A stretch of 64,000 nt of DNA, taken from contig JAEZYU010000037.1 in NCBI GenBank assembly GCA_023418915.1, positions 14,349 through 78,348 on the forward strand, given 5' to 3'. The DNA is from Bacillota bacterium (GTDB taxonomy: Bacteria > Bacillota > Clostridia > Acetivibrionales > DTU013). Positions within the stretch are counted from its first letter, which is position 1; every line of letters begins with the position of its first letter. The translations under genes were made by a program, and so were the position numbers. Below the pieces are notes generated by a model. That model saw nothing but the letters and a program-made list of their open reading frames with translations, did not search any database and was not told the DNA's origin. Below are positions 50,263 through 64,000 of this stretch, piece after piece.

Positions 50263-51486
50263 CTACAGCGCTGTTACAGGGATAGTTACATTTTTGTCAG
50301 TAATATGAACGGCCTTATCGTACATACAGACAACGCCGCCTGTGCCAACAGCTATACCTTTGATTTTATCAAGGACAAAAAAGTTCCCGATATGCTCCTT
50401 ACCCGGGTTGGAGGTCTTCTTGATTTCAATTGGATGCATTATGCCATTTTGTTCTATCAGCAAGTCTATCTCTTTTGCGTCCCTATCCCGGTAATAGTAC
50501 AGCGATGGCTCCAGAACGCCTGCATTGTAATAGCTTTTAAGGATTTCAGCTACTACAAAGGTCTCGAAAAAGGCTCCGGCCATGGCGCCTGCTTCAAGCA
50601 CCTCAGGTGTAGTCCACTTAGTGAGATATGCAGCAAGACCGGTATCAAGGAAATACAGCTTCGGTGTTTTCACAGCTCTTTTGGTAACATTGTTATGATA
50701 CGGCTGCAGCAAATAAACAATGTTTGACGTTAGTAGTATAGAGAGCCATCTGTCCGCTGTCGGAACACTTATTCCCACCTCGTTTGCAACAGCAGATAAA
50801 TTAAGCATCTGAGAAGTTCTGCCTGCAATGGCAGTCATAAATTTGATAAATCTCAGTTCATCGCCGACCTGTGCAAGCTCTCTTACATCACGCTCGATAT
50901 AGGTCTTGGTATATGAGGCATAAAACATCTGCCAATCAATATCCTCCGAATACATAGCGGGCATTGAACCCTTGTGTATTATCTTCCAGATTCCCATATA
51001 GTCGATTTGCTTACTTGACGATTTCCTCTTTGCCAGGTATTCTTCCGTTGGTACAAAAATCTCACTAAACGAGTCTTTCATGATTTCACGAAGAGACAGA
51101 CCCAACAGGTTTATTATACCAATTCTGCCGGCAAGGCTTTCACTGACATTCTTCATCATTTTGAACTGCTGTGAACCTGTAAGAAAAAATTGTCCCTTTT
51201 TCCCGCTCTCATCGGCAATCATTTTTATATACTTAAATAAGTTCGGCGCATACTGAATCTCATCAACGATTACAGGCGGCGGAGCTATTTTGAAAAAAGC
51301 GCTTGCTTCCTCAATGGCGCTTTGCAGCAGAATCGGATCATCAAGAGTCAAATACGGAATATTCCCGGTAATATGCTTTACCAATGTTGTTTTGCCGACC
51401 TGCCTTGCTCCTGTTACCAAAACAGCAGAAAATATTTTAGAGGCTTTATTGATGGTACTCTCAACATTTCTGTCAATGTAATCCAT
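50263..51486 (-). CDS. AAA-family ATPase (AAA_14 + DUF4143-like architecture)
   Basis: The 407 aa ORF has Walker A LVTGARQVGKTTLV and Walker B-like VIVDEIQY. Its C-terminal half resembles the DUF4143 type (YYYRDRDAKEIDLLIE). Confidence 0.75.
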   Translation of the reverse strand: MDYIDRNVESTINKASKIFSAVLVTGARQVGKTTLVKHITGNIPYLTLDDPILLQSAIEEASAFFKIAPPPVIVDEIQYAPNLFKYIKMIADESGKKGQFFLTGSQQFKMMKNVSESLAGRIGIINLLGLSLREIMKDSFSEIFVPTEEYLAKRKSSSKQIDYMGIWKIIHKGSMPAMYSEDIDWQMFYASYTKTYIERDVRELAQVGDELRFIKFMTAIAGRTSQMLNLSAVANEVGISVPTADRWLSILLTSNIVYLLQPYHNNVTKRAVKTPKLYFLDTGLAAYLTKWTTPEVLEAGAMAGAFFETFVVAEILKSYYNAGVLEPSLYYYRDRDAKEIDLLIEQNGIMHPIEIKKTSNPGKEHIGNFFVLDKIKGIAVGTGGVVCMYDKAVHITDKNVTIPVTAL

Positions 51487-51680: not shown

Positions 51681-52502
51681 TTAATCCATTTTATTGAGTC
51701 TATTGTTCAAAATATTTCGCCGTAGTTCATTTAATGCAGTATCACCGGTACTGTTTTCTCTTATTGCCTTTTCTCTTTCATTAAAATCATAAAGAATAGC
51801 CAAGGAATCAGCATCGAGAGAGTTTCCTTCCGCATATAAGATTTTTGTGTTACTTAGATCAAGCATCGTGATGTCACGTATATTATTGTCAGTAATATAC
51901 AATTCAGTTAATCTCAAATCCTTCAATTGCGATACATCCGATATTTTATTTCCGCCTAAGCCCAATGTTTCCAGACTTGTTAAAAATGCAACAGCACTTA
52001 CATCTTCGATATTATTGTCTTCTAATCCTAATATTCTGAGTTTTTTTAACATTTTCAATCCAGAAATATCAGAAATATTATTTTTATTTAGAATGAGCGT
52101 TGTCAAATTAATATGATTTCGTATATTACTAACATCTTCAATATCGTTGTTGGATAGATTTAAAAAAGTTACCGCTGTTAAGTTGGCGATTGGACTTAGA
52201 TCAAAAATTTTATTATTTTCCAGGCTGACCCTTTTCAATTTTGTTTTATTCGACAACATACTTATATCTATTATATTGTTATTACTTAAATCTAAGGATT
52301 CCAAATTATTAAGCTTACTTAAGAAATCTATATTATTAACATTGCTGCTTCTTACAGATAAATCTTGTATGTTGACTAATTCGCTCAAGTCTGCCAAATT
52401 GCCTTTTTCATAATGTGAAATCTTCAAAACTCTCAATTTGTTCAACTTACTTATAGCTGATATATCATCCAGGGGACAGTCAACAGCACCAGCATGCAGC
52501 AT
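51681..52502 (-). CDS. Leucine-rich-repeat protein (internalin-type 22 aa LRRs), no signal peptide, possibly 5'-truncated
   Basis: The 273 aa ORF has about nine repeats of the LxxLxLxxNxIxDISxL type (LESLDLSNNNIIDISML, LNLSNNDIEDVSNI, LILNKNNISDISGL, LGLEDNNIEDVSAV, LGLGGNKISDVSQL). The upstream sequence shows stop-interrupted coding remnants in another frame. Confidence 0.75.
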   Translation of the reverse strand: MLHAGAVDCPLDDISAISKLNKLRVLKISHYEKGNLADLSELVNIQDLSVRSSNVNNIDFLSKLNNLESLDLSNNNIIDISMLSNKTKLKRVSLENNKIFDLSPIANLTAVTFLNLSNNDIEDVSNIRNHINLTTLILNKNNISDISGLKMLKKLRILGLEDNNIEDVSAVAFLTSLETLGLGGNKISDVSQLKDLRLTELYITDNNIRDITMLDLSNTKILYAEGNSLDADSLAILYDFNEREKAIRENSTGDTALNELRRNILNNRLNKMD

Positions 52503-52656
52503 ATCATAACAATCCCTGTAATTTCTTCGGGAGAAATATCTTCCTACTCATTATCCGATTCCCTGAATCCGTTTGCCAGCCGTGTTTCTTCAACGCCAGT
52601 ATATGTGATCTATGCCGCATGTAAGTAAATAAGCGTACCGTAAACAAATACCTTGA

Positions 52657-55600
52657 TCATATTCCGCTCCCTTTCTCCTTTGAAAATGGGCTGAGGTTGA
52701 TGAACAGCTTCTTCAGGTCTTCATCCGCTTCATAGTTAGTCAGGATATACTCCAGCAATTCCTCCTGGCGTGCTTGTCCCAGCGTCAGCCGGTATAATGA
52801 AAGTATCTTGATCAGCCGTTCATATGAAGAAATATCTCTGCTCAGCGGATACAATGGAACAATACGCTCGATCTTTACCTTCTGATCATTGGACAAGCAC
52901 CAGAAAGGCACCAGTTCCGCATTATGCTCGTCTTTCTCGTGAATAAGGGCATTTTGAAACATCTCATCCCAGATGCTTTTGCTGAAAGTAATATCGCCAT
53001 ACTGTCTGGCTACATTTTGCCTTATCGCCAGGCATTTGAACCGGTTAATGCGGCCTTCGCGCTGCTCGAGATCGATGGGGTTTGAAGGCAGGTTCCAGTG
53101 CATTATTTTTCTGCAATAATAATGAAAATCCAGGCCCTCCTGTCCGATAGAGGTAGTTGCCAGAACAAACGGACGGAATGGGGAATTGAAGGAATTTCTC
53201 ACGCTCTTCTTTCTGTCGAAATCCTTGTCGGTATTTCCCTCCCCCTTGGTAAAACCAACAGCATAATGCGTTCTGACACTTACAGGCCAGCTTCTGTAGC
53301 CCTTGACCCTTCCTTCAAAATTTTTGAATGTATCTATGCTGTAGCTGGCTGAATGCACCTGCATTGATTCCAGCATAAGCTGATGAAGGACGCTGCCCCT
53401 GTCGCTGGCTTGGCTCAGGTTATAGGATTCTGTCAGGATATGGGCATATTCGTCAAATACAGATTGCAGGTTTCCTGCTTTACAATATGCGAGTACATTT
53501 TTCCAATGCGCATTGTCGTTCCTTCGACCATAGCAAAGCTCGACAATGGAAGTTGATTCCGGAGAATTCAAGCGGTTCATAAAAGCCTTGGCGATTTGAC
53601 TTGCCCTGTCTATTTCACGCAAGCTTTTCCCATCTGCTTCATGCTGTCCCTTCCTGTCTGTTTCACACTCGCTGCCTTTATTAGTCTGCTCTGAAACCGT
53701 ACTTGATCTACCATTTCCGCCATTCGTGCGGTAAGCACATATCGCCGGAGAAGCCAACGCCATATTGGTGAGTACCTCAAGTAAATCATCAGGCCTTCTG
53801 CCCAGTACCAGATCCGGATCAAATCTGTACTGTCTCATCAGATCAATATGCGCCTTAAGCCCTCTCTGGCCTTGGCCCTGACGGCCCTGTCCCTGGCCCT
53901 GGCCGCCCCTTCTCTTCTCCGCCGCATCATTTTCGTCATCAGGATCAGAATCAATTATTGTATCCGTCCCATCAAACCAATTCCTCACATAGGATTCGTC
54001 ATCGAGGAACAATGGTACAAGATAATACCATCTCTCATCCGTTCCGCCGGTAGTTTTCTCACTCAGGCCTACAGAGTTCAGTCTCTTTAGTATCTTTTGA
54101 GAAATTTCATTTTCCAGTTCCCTCAAAGAAATATGCCTGTTCAAAACATCGATTGGCTGAAAACATTCCGCAAGGAATTCAGAAGGGTAAAGCAGGCACA
54201 GCAGATTCATACTTCTGGGTACACCTTCTGATAACGAAAAACGCAATCGGGACACAGGATAACGTAAACTGTTCTTGGCAAAGTAGTTGGCGTTTTTCAT
54301 CTCTTCCTTGTTCGCTCTCAACGAAAGCTTGCCCACTGTTCTGCGCTCCGCTTCATATGAGATCATAACAGATATCATCCTCGGTACCATTTCCCATGCC
54401 GAGAACACAAGTATTTTTGAAAAGCAGTCCGCATTCCTGAACACACCTCCGGGTTCATAATATGGTTTTGATGCAGGGATCCACAGCAACAATTCCGCCT
54501 TGCTCTCGAAAGCTGCCTCTTTAAGCGATTCCAGCCGCGCATTTACGGCATCCAATGGTTTGTAATTCAACAAAGTGCTCCGCTTGATCCACAAGTATTG
54601 CATATCCGCCTTTTGTATCTCCTCGGGATGTGCTTTGAAGTACCTTTCAATTGCTCTTTTTACCTTGTAATCCCTCATAAAGGATAAAATGTACGGGGAG
54701 GATTTAACAAAATCCACCGGCAAAGCCATGTTGGCTTTGATCTCATCAAGCAGCTGCTGAGCTTGTATATATGTAATAATATCCTTCTCATTCACCTTAA
54801 GGTGCTTCTTTGTGCTTGAGTCGTCTATGAAATCACCTGTTTGTATTGCAGACATTCGCTCAGTCCTACATACAACCCTATATAAAGAATCCTCCGCGTG
54901 CCTTTTTGCTTCAATGATAGTAGCATCATTCATATTGAGTTCACGCAGACGGATCGAATAATTGTTCCAGACATCCTTAAAACAGTCGAACTTTATATTA
55001 TCGGAATAAAGAAATCCAAGCACTTTAAAAAATTCAGCATAATGCTCATCCACCTGGGTCTCCTCTATTTCCTCCAGCGTAGAGTACAGTTTATACGGTG
55101 TTGCCGATAAAAGAAGCATTTTCACTTCATTATTGGAAAAGAACCTTTTTGCCAGCAAGCCGGTTTCACTGACAGCATCGGCATCAATAAGGTATTTGAA
55201 TCGTTGAAATTCATCCATTATTACAAGATCCGGCTCCAACAGATCCACACTGATCTGAGCAAACATGATCCTAAGCCTGCCGATCACACTATTCGCCTGG
55301 ATCCTCCTGCCGCCGTTGTCTCGTATCCGGTCGCACAACTCGATCAATGCCTTGTCCAAACCCTCCTGCTGTATCGAGCATGCAGCCTTATCGACCATAT
55401 ATCTCAGATACTCTCCATTGGTCTTAGCATCGCATTCCTGCACACGCTCCTCATACCAAGCTCTGGCCCATTCATTCCAAGCTTTGAACGCAGTATCCTG
55501 CATAGCAATTTTGAGTTGATTTTCATATGGCTGCAAAAAAGGCAGCCTGCGCAGTATAGCAAACATCAAGGCGCGCTCACTCACACTTCCGGCGCCTGTT

Positions 55601-56031
55601 GTCATTCGGAATGATGTATCCGGTGTTAATGGAATCAGTTGAATATACCCGGCAAGTATTTCTTCATCATGCATTTGAGTGAAAATATTAAGATGCTGCA
55701 TGGACAGCCTTGATGAGCCGATATCTTCCATTCTGATTTTGTCTGCTATCCGGAGCTTGCTCAGGTTCTGGCCGGCAATACTTTGATTAGAGCAAATATA
55801 AACGACCTTGAACAACGGATCTGCCTGTTCATACCTCAAAACAGCAGTTTTAGCTATAACGCCTTTTGCGATCAGTGTTTTCCCAAGTCCGACCTCGTCT
55901 GCCACCAGGATCCTCTTCTGTCCGCTGCGGAACACGGCATCGACCCTGTTGACAGTAGCTCTTTGAAAGTCCTTCAGTGAGTTCATTACACGTTCTTGTG
56001 CCGCATAAAGATCAATGTTCAGTTTTCGCAT
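52657..56031 (-). CDS. SNF2-like superfamily-2 helicase
   Basis: The start is taken at M17 (ATG 56031), 1 nt after the PLD gene stop. Motif I is LVADEVGLGKTLIA, motif II is VIMDEFQRFK and motif III is LLSATPYK. Motifs V/VI are TTSIGQEGLDFH and QREGRINRF. There is an internal GQ-rich linker. Confidence 0.85.
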   Translation of the reverse strand: MRKLNIDLYAAQERVMNSLKDFQRATVNRVDAVFRSGQKRILVADEVGLGKTLIAKGVIAKTAVLRYEQADPLFKVVYICSNQSIAGQNLSKLRIADKIRMEDIGSSRLSMQHLNIFTQMHDEEILAGYIQLIPLTPDTSFRMTTGAGSVSERALMFAILRRLPFLQPYENQLKIAMQDTAFKAWNEWARAWYEERVQECDAKTNGEYLRYMVDKAACSIQQEGLDKALIELCDRIRDNGGRRIQANSVIGRLRIMFAQISVDLLEPDLVIMDEFQRFKYLIDADAVSETGLLAKRFFSNNEVKMLLLSATPYKLYSTLEEIEETQVDEHYAEFFKVLGFLYSDNIKFDCFKDVWNNYSIRLRELNMNDATIIEAKRHAEDSLYRVVCRTERMSAIQTGDFIDDSSTKKHLKVNEKDIITYIQAQQLLDEIKANMALPVDFVKSSPYILSFMRDYKVKRAIERYFKAHPEEIQKADMQYLWIKRSTLLNYKPLDAVNARLESLKEAAFESKAELLLWIPASKPYYEPGGVFRNADCFSKILVFSAWEMVPRMISVMISYEAERRTVGKLSLRANKEEMKNANYFAKNSLRYPVSRLRFSLSEGVPRSMNLLCLLYPSEFLAECFQPIDVLNRHISLRELENEISQKILKRLNSVGLSEKTTGGTDERWYYLVPLFLDDESYVRNWFDGTDTIIDSDPDDENDAAEKRRGGQGQGQGRQGQGQRGLKAHIDLMRQYRFDPDLVLGRRPDDLLEVLTNMALASPAICAYRTNGGNGRSSTVSEQTNKGSECETDRKGQHEADGKSLREIDRASQIAKAFMNRLNSPESTSIVELCYGRRNDNAHWKNVLAYCKAGNLQSVFDEYAHILTESYNLSQASDRGSVLHQLMLESMQVHSASYSIDTFKNFEGRVKGYRSWPVSVRTHYAVGFTKGEGNTDKDFDRKKSVRNSFNSPFRPFVLATTSIGQEGLDFHYYCRKIMHWNLPSNPIDLEQREGRINRFKCLAIRQNVARQYGDITFSKSIWDEMFQNALIHEKDEHNAELVPFWCLSNDQKVKIERIVPLYPLSRDISSYERLIKILSLYRLTLGQARQEELLEYILTNYEADEDLKKLFINLSPFSKEKGSGI

Positions 56032-56032
56032 A

Positions 56033-57844
56033 TCAACCCACTGCCTTTCTAAAGGTATTGTATAATTCCGTAAAACCATCCGGGACCACGCTGCTGTCTG
56101 CCAACATCCTTATAATATAGTCGATTTCCTCAAACCTTTCAGGAGCATGAGCTGCTGTGCGGAGCATCCGCTCATAAACAGCCGGGACCACCGACCCGTC
56201 TTTGTTTGCAAAAAAGCCTGATTGCTGCAGCTTGTTATTTTCAAGAAGCGACAACAGAAAATCATCTCCAAGTAAAAATGAAATATATTCAATAAAATTC
56301 CTCTGATCCTTTATGATACAGCTGATAATTGCACATTCACGATGCTCGGGAATATTGTCGGTATCGATTTTAATAACTCTGTGAACACATGCATTTTCAC
56401 CCTGAGCGGTAATATGATAAAACTCTGAAAGCTGCAATTCATTGAGCCCTTCTATTACAACATGCGGTTCGACCTGCGATGTTTTATTACTGAGCATTGG
56501 TGAAATAGTCAACCCTTCTGTATCACCGAGTTTCTCAAACTTTATGTGGAGATCATACCTGCCATCCGATTCCTTTACCTCTGCATGCGCTTTACTGCGG
56601 CACAAATCCTTGATCCTTCGCTGAAGCATGCTCTCCTCATCGAATGTGTCATTTACTGGCTCATCGGGTATTGCAGTTTCTTCAAACGGATTCTCCTTAC
56701 TGTCCGGATCATTGCCAAACAGATCCTTTTTAAGTACTGATGCGTTAAGATAACGGTTCGGACCGGAAAGCCGAAGCATAAACTCTATATTTGCATTTAC
56801 AGCATTATGCGTTGCATTCATTGAACCCAAATACAATTCACTTGTGGAGTATTTACGGCGTAGATATAGCTTAGCATGGATATCCTGCATTTGCTTCCCG
56901 GAATTGTCGTCAGACAGACATGACTCACCTTCAACTATCATGTCTTTCAGCGTATATATCTTGAACTTGCTGCAATGCTCCGGAGCCAATTTTTGAAGCG
57001 ATGATTTCCGTGTTATAAGATTACAGTCGGGCGCAACAATAACACGGTTGCGCTCATTGAAATCCCGGATCACACTGTCTGACACAAATGGCGAAATTAT
57101 AACGATTTCACGGAAGGTGTCAGTGAATAAGCTATAGTCGGCAATATCATAGCTATCGCCATTCTCATCCTTAATCCCTATAGGAATAAATTCAAAATCA
57201 CTAAAGGCCTTATTGTCCAATTCAAATGAAACGTCCAATACTTCCTTTGCCAATGAATTAAGCATTTTTCTCTTCGATTTCGAATTCCGGTCAGAGCTGC
57301 GTATTTGTGCAGCCAAATATTTGAGAAAATCACATACAGGAACCGAGCGATCGCACCGTTCGCCGCCCAGCGAGCCATCCAGTACTGCCGAAACGTCCCA
57401 GCTCCGGTCAAAGGTCATGTTCCTGCTAAGAACAATCATCCTGTACTTTGATTTTCCCTGGTCATTTATATATTTCAGCAGCCAGAATTTCGGGTGAAAG
57501 GATGGATAACCCTTCATTTTAGCTTTCTTTCCGAGGCTTACCTGAAAAACCATTTTCTCTAATAGGATATACAATGAAGATAGCTTCGCTGGCATTGCTA
57601 TCTGTCCTGATTCACAAAATATCACCACTTTATCTGCAGTCTGCCGGAGCGCTTCAAGCAAATAAACCGGATTTTGCATAAGCAGACTGTCGGAGCTCTC
57701 TGACAGACCAAGAGCTATACACATACCTATCAGCGCATCCATATCAAGTGAATATGTTGTGCCGACTGAAGACTCCAGTTTGTAACCCGGGGGAGGCATA
57801 AGCATATTGCTGTAATCGGAACGGTCGTTGGAAGGATTAAGCAT
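56033..57844 (-). CDS. Phospholipase-D-family nuclease-like protein with two HKD motifs
   Basis: The 603 aa ORF has a first HKD-like motif SFHPKFWLLKY and a second motif DIHAKLYLRR...LGSMNATHNA. Its ATG at 57844 lies 1 nt after the upstream TAA. Confidence 0.8.
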   Translation of the reverse strand: MLNPSNDRSDYSNMLMPPPGYKLESSVGTTYSLDMDALIGMCIALGLSESSDSLLMQNPVYLLEALRQTADKVVIFCESGQIAMPAKLSSLYILLEKMVFQVSLGKKAKMKGYPSFHPKFWLLKYINDQGKSKYRMIVLSRNMTFDRSWDVSAVLDGSLGGERCDRSVPVCDFLKYLAAQIRSSDRNSKSKRKMLNSLAKEVLDVSFELDNKAFSDFEFIPIGIKDENGDSYDIADYSLFTDTFREIVIISPFVSDSVIRDFNERNRVIVAPDCNLITRKSSLQKLAPEHCSKFKIYTLKDMIVEGESCLSDDNSGKQMQDIHAKLYLRRKYSTSELYLGSMNATHNAVNANIEFMLRLSGPNRYLNASVLKKDLFGNDPDSKENPFEETAIPDEPVNDTFDEESMLQRRIKDLCRSKAHAEVKESDGRYDLHIKFEKLGDTEGLTISPMLSNKTSQVEPHVVIEGLNELQLSEFYHITAQGENACVHRVIKIDTDNIPEHRECAIISCIIKDQRNFIEYISFLLGDDFLLSLLENNKLQQSGFFANKDGSVVPAVYERMLRTAAHAPERFEEIDYIIRMLADSSVVPDGFTELYNTFRKAVG

Positions 57845-57845
57845 T

Positions 57846-59051
57846 TTAACTTACCTCCCCTTCAAAAATGTCTTTGATGATCTGTTTAGCACTGTTGAAG
57901 CGATAATCAAGCCGGCCGCCGCCGAACCAGGCATCGGCAGGAAACTCACCAGCCTTTTGAAGCTTGGCCCTGCTTTTCGTTTTCAATGAACACTCCCTGT
58001 TGATGATTATTTCATCCATCGCAGCAACAGCATCCTCATTTCCGTTACTCATGCACTTTTGTACATCCGTAAGGAAGCGATATAATCCGTGATTATGGAT
58101 ATGCAGCCTGCTGAATATCGTTCCGATATCAACATCTGCGTTCCTTGACATGTTGCCCCTGTAAGCTTCCCACTCTTTAACGGCTTCCTCATTATGTCCC
58201 TGCGATAAAATCACATTGTATCTGATCCTCATCCCATAAATAAATTCCGAAGCAGTTTTTGCGAGCAGTATATCTCGCTGCATGTCGGGTGGCAGCAACG
58301 GCAGCAAAACGTTCGCCATATCGTTGAAGCTATCATAGTTTGTGATATCACGTCGATTATTCTGTAATATGAATGCTATTAATGAACTCGGGCAATTGCC
58401 AATGATCTGCCGCTTAAGAAATACAGTCTCAGGTTGTGTCAAGTCAATCCGCAGATTTTCCTGCCATCCGCCATAGCAATATTCCGGCAGTTTCCAGAAG
58501 GTTGCGGCAAACAAACCTGACGCATCGTCGTCATCCCTTTCTCCCTCATCGGCGTCATCCTTACGGTTCAAATGTGCTTTCAGGGTTCCTTTTTGGGATT
58601 TCAACAGGCAGGAGGCTCTCAAATATTCATGATATGTCATTCTGTCATCTGTAAAAATACCGTAGGTCCTTAATCCGCTCCAATAGATTTCGACCGGCGT
58701 CCTTTTGACCCAATTGCCCGCCTTGAGGTTGCGGGCTCCAATTATGCCTTCATCACTGGTTTTCAGCAGCGCTTCACCGCAGCTGCGCTCCAGATCATTC
58801 ATCTTTTGTGCCAAGACTCTGGGATCAGTTATGCTTGTACGCTCCAGATCATACAAAGCATATGGTACGATCAGAAAATACTTGGCTCGTGTCTGGATCG
58901 TTGAAGTTCCGGGGAAGAACACATTCGCAAAGCCATCCCGTATTGGAGCTATTCCAAGTTCATCAAGCGTACCGTCCTCAGACAAAAGATTTATGACATC
59001 CAACACCTTAGCACGTTCTAATTTGGAAAAGTCGACCCACCCCAGTTCCAA
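57846..59051 (-). CDS. 401 aa protein of unknown function (DUF6361-like by recollection)
   Basis: The TTG start follows a strong RBS, GAGGTGG. The N-terminal LGWVDFSKLERAKVLDVINLL...LDELGIAPIRDGFANVFFPGTSTIQTRAKYFLIVPY matches my memory of that family. No search was run. Confidence 0.55.
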   Translation of the reverse strand: MELGWVDFSKLERAKVLDVINLLSEDGTLDELGIAPIRDGFANVFFPGTSTIQTRAKYFLIVPYALYDLERTSITDPRVLAQKMNDLERSCGEALLKTSDEGIIGARNLKAGNWVKRTPVEIYWSGLRTYGIFTDDRMTYHEYLRASCLLKSQKGTLKAHLNRKDDADEGERDDDDASGLFAATFWKLPEYCYGGWQENLRIDLTQPETVFLKRQIIGNCPSSLIAFILQNNRRDITNYDSFNDMANVLLPLLPPDMQRDILLAKTASEFIYGMRIRYNVILSQGHNEEAVKEWEAYRGNMSRNADVDIGTIFSRLHIHNHGLYRFLTDVQKCMSNGNEDAVAAMDEIIINRECSLKTKSRAKLQKAGEFPADAWFGGGRLDYRFNSAKQIIKDIFEGEVS

Positions 59052-59133
59052 TTACGCCACCTCGCAGTTGAAATACACATATATAATTTAATATCGATCG
59101 CTCAATCGTTTCGGCATCGACATTAGTTCTTAT

Positions 59134-59142
59134 ATTATACCA
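59134..59142 (-). promoter_or_regulatory. Candidate extended -10 promoter element (TGGTATAAT) for the three-gene cassette
   Basis: The minus strand reads ATATGGTATAATATAAG, about 80 nt upstream of the TTG start at 59051. There is no good -35 element. Confidence 0.4.
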
Positions 59143-59472
59143 TATTATTTTGCGAAGGAGGGGTGATTCAATGAGGTCATTCAATGCATCTATGTTATTC
59201 AAAAACGAGTATAACAAATGTTTCTTGACCGCGGTCATTACTAATATCTTCCGGTGATATATTCAATATACTCAATATCCGATTCCCTGAACTTGCTTGC
59301 CAGCCTGATTATGAGTTCCTGATAGGTTAGTGAGTGAAATAATATTTAATCCCGTTTTGCTATTTCTTCAAATCTGGTGATCTCTTCATTATGTCGGAAA
59401 GATTCTTCGCCGATAGTGTCGTACCAGAGGTATAGGAGCCTGAATCCTGGTTCTCTCCTGTACCGAACATCA

Positions 59473-61433: not shown

Positions 61434-63968
61434 TTATCTGATTTTGTTTATCAAAACTTCTGAGTAATGATGGAATAAACACAAAGCGGGTTCATACAAA
61501 ATATCCTCGTTGTTCGTCTCAGTATACAACAATGCTTTTGCCATGAAAATCCCATCAACATATGTGAAAATTTCCGGTATTATTTCTTGATAAATTTCAG
61601 CACTTCTTTCATAAGCCTTGTTCATCATCCAGGCTAAAATATCATAAACATCACTTTCTTCAACACCGTATAATTCACTAGAGAACTTAATAGCTGCTTT
61701 AATATTCTGAAGTATTGCATTTAAATCATAATCTGTGCAATACAACTCTGATAGTGCTCTAAGCAGCAGCAACCCTGGATGGTCCGGGAATGACTCAAGA
61801 TAACGGGACACCTGACCTCGTATCTCCGCTGCATCCTTAGGTGAACGAAGGCCTCCAACTATTTCACCATCAGTTGTTTCATAGCCATCGATCATTTCCT
61901 TTAAGCATGAAAATCCGATATCCTCACTGTCAAGAATCTTCTCGATTTCTTCTGTATATGAATATTCAAGATATCGCAGAATTCTCTCCCTCATAACTGT
62001 ATCCGAATCATAACTTGATGCTGCTGACTCTGTTATAGCCAGCATTTCATTCAAAGCACGTCTTCTGCCTTTTTCTATTGTTTCATAAATGAATGAAACA
62101 AGCACACGACATGCTTCCATCATAAACTCCAGATAATCCAGGTCACTATAGGCTTCCATCTTTCTTACTTCTTTGAGCACCCTGCTTTTATTATAACCGG
62201 CTACATAGCGTGCATAGTTATCAATAATATCCTGCTTTGAATTTCTGCTGAGATATAACTGGAACTCGTCTGAAGAATAATCCAGAGTGTAATCTTCGAC
62301 AACTCCAAGGATCAGCAATCTGTGAATTGCTTTTTCAATCCTGTTCCTCTCCATATCGGGAACTACAATATTTATTTGTTTTGTTCCCAATCCATCTCTA
62401 AAAATATGCGATGCAACTCTTTCTATATCCCCCATCTCATTTTCTATTCCTCTGAATGAGTTAATGTGAAAGTACATGATCCTAGTTATGTCATCATCAG
62501 TTTCAAAACTTCTCTCTTCATCCATGATCCTGCTTATCTCTTCTGTAGATTGGTTAACATCCAGCAGTTTTTTAGTCCTGACTCTATCATCATTAGACAG
62601 GATAATCAGGCACTCGGATCTTTTCCTATCCCTGCCTGCTCTGCCAGCCTCCTGATAAAAAGATTCAATAGAAGCAGGTATGCCATAATGTATCGTATAT
62701 CTAATATTAGGTTTATCTATTCCCATACCAAAAGCCTTAGTGGCAACTAAAAGGCTTATGTAATTATTTTTAAAATCTGAAGCATTCTTCTTTTTTTGCA
62801 CCTTCCACCTTTCAGATTCCCAATTCCTTGGTGCCTTTCCTGCATAGTATTTCGCATTGATATTGGCCTTTGCCGCCAGTTTTCCTGCCAGCTCAACTAC
62901 GCCATATTTCCCGCCGACATTTGGACAAAACACTATCCCACAGTTTGTAGCATCATCATATAACTGAAAAAAGGAAGAATACGATCTGTTGAATTTATCA
63001 GGAAGATACTTTTGAAGAAGGCCCATCAGTACATTCATTTTCTCCTCTGACCTGCATTGTACGACGTAGTAATGCAGTTCTTTCCGATCAAAGGTCTTTG
63101 GGGTGATAATCGCTTCATAATCATATATCTGTAATTCCCTTTGCACATCCTTTAGAACAGCATTGGAGGCTGTACCAGTAAGACCTAAAATGCAAGGTGG
63201 TCTATCTCTGAATTTGCAGCAGTTTCTACTGGTTCGTGCTATATTAAGATAGGATGTTCTGAAATCATGTCCCCATTCAGACACACAATGAGATTCATCA
63301 ACAGCTACCAACGGTATTGCAGTGCTGACAGTCAGCATTTTTATTGCGTTCCTGAACTCTTCTGTCTGGAACCGTTCCGGTGCGATATAGCATAACAGGT
63401 ATTCACCAAGGCCAAATTTTCTTATTATCTCAGACCTTGTCGCCGGTAAAGCAATATCACTGGTTATCCCCGCAATTCGGTCAATTCCGGCTCTGGCTAG
63501 GTTCTCAATCTGATCATCTATTAACGATATTATCGGATCTATAACGATCGATACCCCCGGAAGAAGCAATGCAGACAGTTGAAACGCTATAGACTTGCCG
63601 CCGCCTGTTGGCAAAAGCACTATGGTATCTTTGCCGGTTAGCGCTCTGGAGATTGTCTCATACTGGCCTTCAAGGAATTTTTCTTTTCGGAAAATATAAT
63701 TAAGAAAAAACTCTAGTACATCAATCTTTGGATTAATTGATGAAGTTATGGCGTTTGATCTTGAATACTGTGATAACAAACGTGGGAATGTTATATCTTC
63801 AATAATAAATCTGGTCAAAGAGGCAGGTAGATTGCCGTTATATGTTATAACGGCTCCTTGTTGCTGGCCGCTGTACCTTTCTAAATGGAACTTAACTATA
63901 TCAGCATCCCATCCATACAGTACTGAAATATTGTATATCAATTCATTTAAATCATCTTGAGCCAGCAT
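61434..63968 (-). CDS. RecQ-family-like SF2 DNA helicase with large C-terminal extension
   Basis: Motif I is LLPTGGGKSIAFQLSALL, followed by IDPIISLIDDQ. Motif II is VAVDESHCVSEWGHDFR and motif III is LGLTGTAS. Motifs V/VI are ATKAFGMGIDKPNIR and YQEAGRAGRD. The ATG at 63968 overlaps the stop (63971-63973) of an upstream ORF that leaves the window. Confidence 0.85.
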   Translation of the reverse strand: MLAQDDLNELIYNISVLYGWDADIVKFHLERYSGQQQGAVITYNGNLPASLTRFIIEDITFPRLLSQYSRSNAITSSINPKIDVLEFFLNYIFRKEKFLEGQYETISRALTGKDTIVLLPTGGGKSIAFQLSALLLPGVSIVIDPIISLIDDQIENLARAGIDRIAGITSDIALPATRSEIIRKFGLGEYLLCYIAPERFQTEEFRNAIKMLTVSTAIPLVAVDESHCVSEWGHDFRTSYLNIARTSRNCCKFRDRPPCILGLTGTASNAVLKDVQRELQIYDYEAIITPKTFDRKELHYYVVQCRSEEKMNVLMGLLQKYLPDKFNRSYSSFFQLYDDATNCGIVFCPNVGGKYGVVELAGKLAAKANINAKYYAGKAPRNWESERWKVQKKKNASDFKNNYISLLVATKAFGMGIDKPNIRYTIHYGIPASIESFYQEAGRAGRDRKRSECLIILSNDDRVRTKKLLDVNQSTEEISRIMDEERSFETDDDITRIMYFHINSFRGIENEMGDIERVASHIFRDGLGTKQINIVVPDMERNRIEKAIHRLLILGVVEDYTLDYSSDEFQLYLSRNSKQDIIDNYARYVAGYNKSRVLKEVRKMEAYSDLDYLEFMMEACRVLVSFIYETIEKGRRRALNEMLAITESAASSYDSDTVMRERILRYLEYSYTEEIEKILDSEDIGFSCLKEMIDGYETTDGEIVGGLRSPKDAAEIRGQVSRYLESFPDHPGLLLLRALSELYCTDYDLNAILQNIKAAIKFSSELYGVEESDVYDILAWMMNKAYERSAEIYQEIIPEIFTYVDGIFMAKALLYTETNNEDILYEPALCLFHHYSEVLINKIR

Positions 63969-64000
63969 AATCAAAAAATCGATATCATCGTCTGATAACA

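Follow-up and report, generated by a model that had tools for sequence, protein, structure and literature searches.

Azaca (ZacABC) is an anti-phage defence system attributed to Millman et al. 2022 (PMC10952713). Two members, BmAzaca from Bacillus and KpAzaca from Klebsiella, give E. coli strong, selective protection from T4-like phages, with an effect on T4 of more than 1e6-fold (10.1101/2025.07.10.664194). Purified BmAzaca cut T4 DNA only when ZacA, ZacB and ZacC were present together; cleavage was abolished by mutations in the phospholipase D (PLD) active site or in the ZacC Walker A motif, and was left intact by mutations of conserved ZacA residues (10.1101/2025.07.10.664194). The BmAzaca cut sites were degenerate (5' A|NT), and the glucosyl-hydroxymethylcytosine of T4 was suggested, not shown, to be the cue for the system (10.1101/2025.07.10.664194). 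In this study, we analysed a 64,000-nucleotide (nt) stretch of DNA, hereafter the window, from a Bacillota bacterium of the Clostridia (assembly GCA_023418915.1, contig JAEZYU010000037.1, positions 14,349 to 78,348), and found a three-gene cassette that we consider, with a probability of about 93%, to be a complete and apparently intact Azaca anti-phage operon.

Identification of the cassette

The cassette lies on the minus strand and consists of zacA (57846-59051), encoding a DUF6361 protein of 401 amino acids (aa) that is the Azaca accessory subunit, zacB (56033-57844), encoding the effector, a predicted 603-aa PLD-family nuclease with two HKD motifs, and zacC (52657-56031), encoding a 1124-aa helicase-type ATPase of superfamily 2 (SF2; SNF2/RapA-like). 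We searched the three proteins against the PADLOC, Pfam and NCBIfam profile sets, the last of which holds no Azaca models. Each protein matched its PADLOC Azaca model from end to end. ZacA matched with an E-value of 2.9e-91 (residues 3-398 on profile positions 5-393 of 396), ZacB with 2.8e-150 (residues 1-602 on positions 1-581 of 586), and ZacC with an E-value of 0 and 1040.8 bits (positions 5-1018 of 1019). The N-terminal 131 residues of ZacA also matched Pfam DUF6361 (PF19888) at 80.9 bits, well above the cut-off of 25, and ZacC matched Helicase_C and ResIII.

An original prediction, made by a model from the letters of this DNA alone, had suggested a resemblance to Azaca with a DUF6361 protein in first position and had proposed PADLOC and Pfam searches as checks. 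The clean, full-length PADLOC matches of all three proteins and the DUF6361 match above the Pfam threshold bear that guess out. The Pfam domains that it expected were recovered for DUF6361, Helicase_C and ResIII, but not for PLDc_2, which scored 19 bits on ZacB against a cut-off of 27. It had also stated that, given a clean Azaca call, the cassette would count as known and not as novel, and on that ground we regard it as known.

Compared with described Azaca systems, the cassette encodes an identical set of three proteins in unchanged order (DUF6361, two-HKD PLD nuclease, SF2 helicase), each matching its profile over the full length, with tight or overlapping junctions, no methylase and a location in a defence island. 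It differs in being a divergent orthologue from an uncultured bacterium, in the TTG start of zacA, and in two extra inserts in ZacC.

As a fallback, the original prediction had offered an unclassified helicase/PLD system with DISARM-like parts. This reading, in which a DISARM-like or Dpd-like system merely resembles Azaca, draws on the secondary matches of ZacC to the DrmD, DrmA, DpdE, BrxH and PDC-M27C models. DISARM (DrmA, DrmB, the PLD protein DrmC, the SNF2 protein DrmD and DrmMI-II) likewise pairs a nuclease of the PLD family with an SNF2-like helicase, and helicase motifs V-VI are common to ZacC and DrmD. However, the DrmD, DpdE and BrxH matches span only about 60 residues of ZacC (approximately 955-1014, motifs V-VI), the same stretch that is matched by the NCBIfam RapA model, and their scores are far below the curated cut-offs (56.8 bits against 610 for DrmD, and 48.1 against 500 for DpdE of the 7-deazaguanine DNA modification/restriction system Dpd). 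The window carries no DrmA, DrmB (DUF1998) or methyltransferase gene near the cassette, and ZacA has no DISARM counterpart. Because the NCBIfam matches on ZacC are short and fall far below their thresholds, and with all three Azaca models matching end to end, we rejected the DISARM-like fallback as exceedingly improbable.

The absence of a neighbouring methyltransferase, which had been noted before, held on a wider scale. No methyltransferase domain was found in the large open reading frames scanned on both sides of the cassette (window positions 40898-63974), and none was found in the precomputed Pfam matches of called genes on the full contig, from approximately 10 kb upstream of zacA to 7 kb past zacC.

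Next to the profile matches, conservation of the trio as a unit argues for the Azaca assignment. In the surroundings of ZacA homologues with 28-72% identity, we found that the three genes follow in the order A-B-C on one strand wherever the contig is long enough (L001, L003/L004, L005/L006, L007, L011, L012/L013, L015 and L016). The loci range from metagenome contigs of Clostridia type to a Cronobacter plasmid (L015), and include a Parasporobacterium metagenome-assembled genome (L001) and the record MT835621.1 (L016). The unit, whose conservation in other genomes the original prediction had singled out for checking, recurs in at least eight independent contexts. Its neighbours differ from locus to locus, and include SbcCD, AddAB-like, type I restriction-modification and Mrr genes, a relaxase/ParB element, and an integrase, the last on the Cronobacter IncFIB plasmid. 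In these other loci the genes usually overlap by 1-20 nt and otherwise abut, and the proteins have similar lengths (ZacA about 400 aa, ZacB about 604 aa, ZacC 1050-1104 aa). The Cronobacter record labels its trio as DUF6361 family protein, phospholipase D family protein and helicase-related protein.

The nearest database relatives of the window proteins are 72% (ZacA), 62% (ZacB) and 65% (ZacC) identical. An identical protein (exact ZacA or exact leucine-rich repeat (LRR) protein, the latter encoded downstream of zacC) was found on 7 assembled contigs in the same context; all 7 share this layout, and none shows an empty site or another context for the cassette. The exact DUF1643 protein encoded upstream of zacA, as delimited here, is not on record.

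In the Parasporobacterium genome, a gene with Mrr_N and Mrr_cat domains, resembling type IV restriction enzymes, lies directly upstream of zacA (L001:7057-7968); the window contains no such gene. The unverified record MT835621.1, filed as 'Bacteriophage sp.', is the only 'phage' record with a ZacA homologue. Immediately upstream of its zacABC genes is a type I restriction-modification locus (hsdM, integrase, hsdS, hsdR), and it also holds lysozyme/CHAP, ADP-ribosylglycohydrolase and ImpB-family genes. Its scanned open reading frames included no genes for phage structural proteins, and the record looks like a defence island of a bacterium or mobile element filed as phage.

Gene layout and the three Zac proteins

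The three genes have almost no spacing, as had been described earlier, with a gap of 1 nt at each of the two junctions. The zacA/zacB junction reads gTAAaATG, where the zacA stop occupies 57848-57846 and the zacB ATG 57844-57842; its TAAaATG motif had been recognised correctly and placed at 57844-57848, and the real span is 57848-57842. The zacB/zacC junction, TGAtATG at 56035-56029, reads as previously reported. The longest mechanical open reading frame for zacC starts at an ATG at 56079 (1140 aa). Alignment of homologues favours the ATG at 56031, the start used in the original prediction, and so do independent 1124-aa gene calls on identical contigs. Open reading frames of 401, 603 and 1124 codons, with 2560 homologues for ZacA alone, are far beyond chance. 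The GC content of the cassette is 44.6%, and that of the window 42.4%.

The TTG start of zacA aligns exactly with the N-terminus of all homologues (M-x-LGW-x-DFSK). A Shine-Dalgarno-like GAGGTG (59057-59062, minus strand) lies 6 nt 5' of this TTG at 59051, in keeping with the ribosome binding site noted before. Farther upstream, 83 nt from the zacA start, we found the candidate extended -10 element TGGTATAAT (59134-59142, minus strand). Its sequence is as first read, but a promoter role found no support: no usable -35 element was found for it, and promoter-like matches across the region occur at the chance level (15 observed, 15.2 +/- 3.7 expected from shuffled sequence). The putative zacA promoter is therefore only a consensus match and not evidence of function. 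The element also lies within a 76-aa open reading frame with an ATG start (59008-59238, minus strand), which shares 44 nt with the start of zacA and was predicted as a gene on the ENA contig. This frame has no Pfam match and no counterpart upstream of zacA in the other loci, and is probably spurious.

The nuclease ZacB contains both HxK motifs noticed earlier, each paired with a downstream motif. The first, H117-P-K119 (57488-57496, minus strand), is paired with LSRN (aa 139-142, 57419-57430), and the second, H323-A-K325 (56870-56878, minus strand), with GSMN (aa 340-343, 56816-56827). Nine residues do not vary among 7 ZacB sequences (H117, K119, S140, N142, H323, K325, G340, S341 and N343), and the window ZacB is 49-62% identical to its relatives.

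The SF2 motif set that had been listed for the helicase is present in full in ZacC. It consists of the Walker A motif (motif I) GLGKT (aa 48-52, 55876-55890), motif II DEFQ (aa 273-276, 55204-55215), motif III SATP (aa 309-312, 55096-55107) and motif VI QREGRINRF (aa 990-998, 53038-53064), all on the minus strand. These motifs, and likewise TSIGQEGLD, are invariant in 6 ZacC sequences, and the window protein is 53-65% identical to its relatives. A single-sequence search of PDB sequences with ZacC gave no match; a profile search found RapA as the nearest solved relative, over short motif stretches only (E-value 3e-4). We also found two low-complexity inserts in ZacC. The first is GGQGQGQGRQGQGQ (aa 709-722, 53866-53907, minus strand), encoded by two copies of a 21-nt tandem repeat (53866-53908), and the second, seen in the alignment, is a polar stretch of 30 residues (aa 775-804, 53620-53709, minus strand).

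ZacA has 2560 database homologues, nearly all of about 400 aa, and the window protein is 48-72% identical to its aligned relatives. Structure prediction of this 401-aa protein had been proposed as a further check. AlphaFold2, run with an alignment of 58 sequences, gave a confident all-alpha model, with a predicted local distance difference test score (pLDDT) of 84.8 and a predicted template modelling score (pTM) of 0.81. Two segments were of low confidence, namely the highly conserved first 26 residues and the acidic loop at residues 163-182. Foldseek searches with the model returned nothing significant in the PDB (best E-value 1.9, TM score at most 0.18) or in the predicted viral structures of BFVD, and a single-sequence search of PDB sequences gave no match; hence ZacA is without a structural relative in these collections. 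From the lack of a structural relative and from the two segments discussed below, one may ask whether ZacA is a new fold and acts in Azaca as the subunit for specificity or sensing, an idea that we regard as rather unlikely. If true, it would apply to the whole Azaca family and not specially to this locus.

Residues 1-26 form the most conserved segment of ZacA, with G4, W5 and S9 invariant. Since this near-invariant segment is predicted to be disordered in isolation, it may dock onto ZacB or ZacC. The acidic loop DDADEGERDDDDA, also conserved, might mimic DNA and so keep the system inhibited until it encounters phage DNA.

Proposed mechanism and alternative readings

By analogy with the purified Bacillus system, we infer that this copy behaves like BmAzaca. 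ZacA, ZacB and ZacC would assemble into one ATP-dependent nuclease complex, with ZacA as its obligatory third subunit. Using its GLGKT and DEFQ motifs, ZacC would spend ATP to engage DNA or move along it, and would thereby license ZacB. As a single-chain nuclease with two HKD motifs, ZacB would then cut double-stranded phage DNA at highly degenerate sites, presumably through a covalent phospho-histidine intermediate. Since no methyltransferase is present, what tells self from non-self is most likely not host methylation but some property of the invading DNA. This property may be base hypermodification, sensed in a type IV manner, and the same analogy would make DNA modification the recognition cue. 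Type IV restriction enzymes also lack a cognate methylase, and the Bacillus homologue prefers hypermodified T4 DNA. In contrast to these enzymes, Azaca uses PLD chemistry instead of PD-(D/E)xK or HNH, has three subunits and an ATPase requirement, and its dependence on modification is only suggested.

Several observations weigh against the assignment of the locus as a complete, working Azaca operon. General domain, sequence and fold searches did not confirm the PLD assignment of ZacB: besides its PLDc_2 score below the Pfam cut-off, ZacB gave no match to PDB sequences either as a single sequence or as a profile, and its AlphaFold2 model was poor (pLDDT 61, pTM 0.42) because the alignment held only 7 sequences. 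Owing to this low pLDDT, a fold search with the model was uninformative; it gave only weak immunoglobulin-like matches to the one well-modelled region, a beta-sandwich at approximately residues 410-500, which we did not use as evidence. Both ZacC inserts are lineage-specific, being absent from three aligned relatives (L001, L003 and L005). No canonical terminator was found 3' of zacC, and the zacA promoter is the consensus match described above. A DNA modification has been only suggested as the cue even for BmAzaca. Lastly, pieces of this copy were found only in metagenome DNA runs.

Some of these observations could also be taken to mean that the cassette is an Azaca remnant, structurally intact but functionally dead or silenced within a decaying island. 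Such a reading would point to the low-complexity inserts of ZacC, to the lack of a clear promoter or terminator, and to a decayed gene fragment, the GGACT-like stub of 16 codons, at the zacC stop. Yet all three open reading frames are full length with no frameshift or premature stop, and every catalytic and ATPase motif is intact. Identity to relatives is even along the proteins, an identical protein occurs on 7 contigs, and the inserts sit in a linker that varies in length among relatives. We therefore consider a dead remnant highly unlikely, and retain the intact Azaca operon as our reading.

As a discovery the locus matters little. The Azaca family has thousands of members, and what is gained here is a further divergent orthologue, whose uncultured host occurs in samples of manure, compost and gut type. 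For annotation, the cassette can be labelled Azaca and the surrounding 25 kb a defence island. The questions that it touches are those of the whole family, namely the role of ZacA and how a PLD/helicase complex without a methylase tells phage DNA from host DNA. As a Clostridia-type orthologue, it could serve structural work as a comparison point.

Defence-island neighbourhood and flanking repeats

The Azaca cassette lies in a defence island of approximately 25 kb that also contains a type III Wadjet system, PDC-S01 and a large helicase module, and the named neighbours are all on the minus strand. Downstream of zacC, a leaderless LRR protein of 273 aa (51681-52502) has no PADLOC match. It is followed by an ATPase with AAA_14 and DUF4143 domains (50263-51486), which matches the PADLOC candidate system PDC-S01 at full length (E-value 1.7e-103). 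Next is a complete type III Wadjet operon, jetD-A-B-C (48957-40898), whose products match JetD3, JetA3, JetB3 and JetC3 with PADLOC E-values of 1.9e-89 to 3e-164.

Since Wadjet is an anti-plasmid system, its proximity could suggest that plasmids or other mobile DNA, and not phages, are the main target of the cassette, or that it serves in DNA repair; related cassettes are indeed found on plasmids and conjugative elements. But phage defence systems are typically located on mobile elements, and in the only experiments on the family Azaca was strongly active against phages and cleaved phage DNA. A role aimed mainly at other targets thus appears very improbable, and we favour anti-phage defence as the function of this Azaca operon.

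Upstream of zacA, we found in order the DUF1643 protein gene, a gene for a 202-aa coiled-coil, tail-anchored protein, and a helicase gene that runs past the window end. Of this RecQ/DpdF-like helicase (61434-64000; L010:3725-7618), the C-terminal two thirds fall within the window. As encoded on the full contig, the protein is 1297 aa long and has Zn_ribbon_Top1, DUF559, MTES_1575, DEAD and Helicase_C domains, and it matches DpdF models over the generic helicase core only. Together with the 202-aa coiled-coil protein that follows it, the helicase may form another defence module.

A 37-nt direct repeat brackets the cassette and its upstream region. The upstream copy (59269-59305) and the downstream copy (52545-52581), which lies 76 nt past the zacC stop, are 86% identical, with all 37 nt aligning without gaps (BLAST E-value 2.5e-6 within the window). 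The repeat is unrelated to 236-bp repeats reported around the Wadjet operon. Read in one minus-strand frame, the two copies give similar peptides (TY..RLA..FRESD.E), and so may be decayed paralogous gene fragments. The repeat could be a recombination scar of cassette exchange.

The stub at the zacC stop is an open reading frame of 16 codons, MIKVFVYGTLIYLHAA* (52610-52660, minus strand), which overlaps the stop as ATGA and whose N-terminus is GGACT/AIG2-like. Past the window end, approximately 10 kb upstream of zacA, there is an intact GGACT (PF06094) gene (L010:1-64). We considered a GGACT-like fourth Azaca gene and rejected it, as the genes downstream of the trio in L001, L003, L005, L011 and L012 are unrelated. 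The 37-nt repeat and the GGACT-like stub, which are not part of Azaca elsewhere, fit a turnover of cassettes by recombination in the island.

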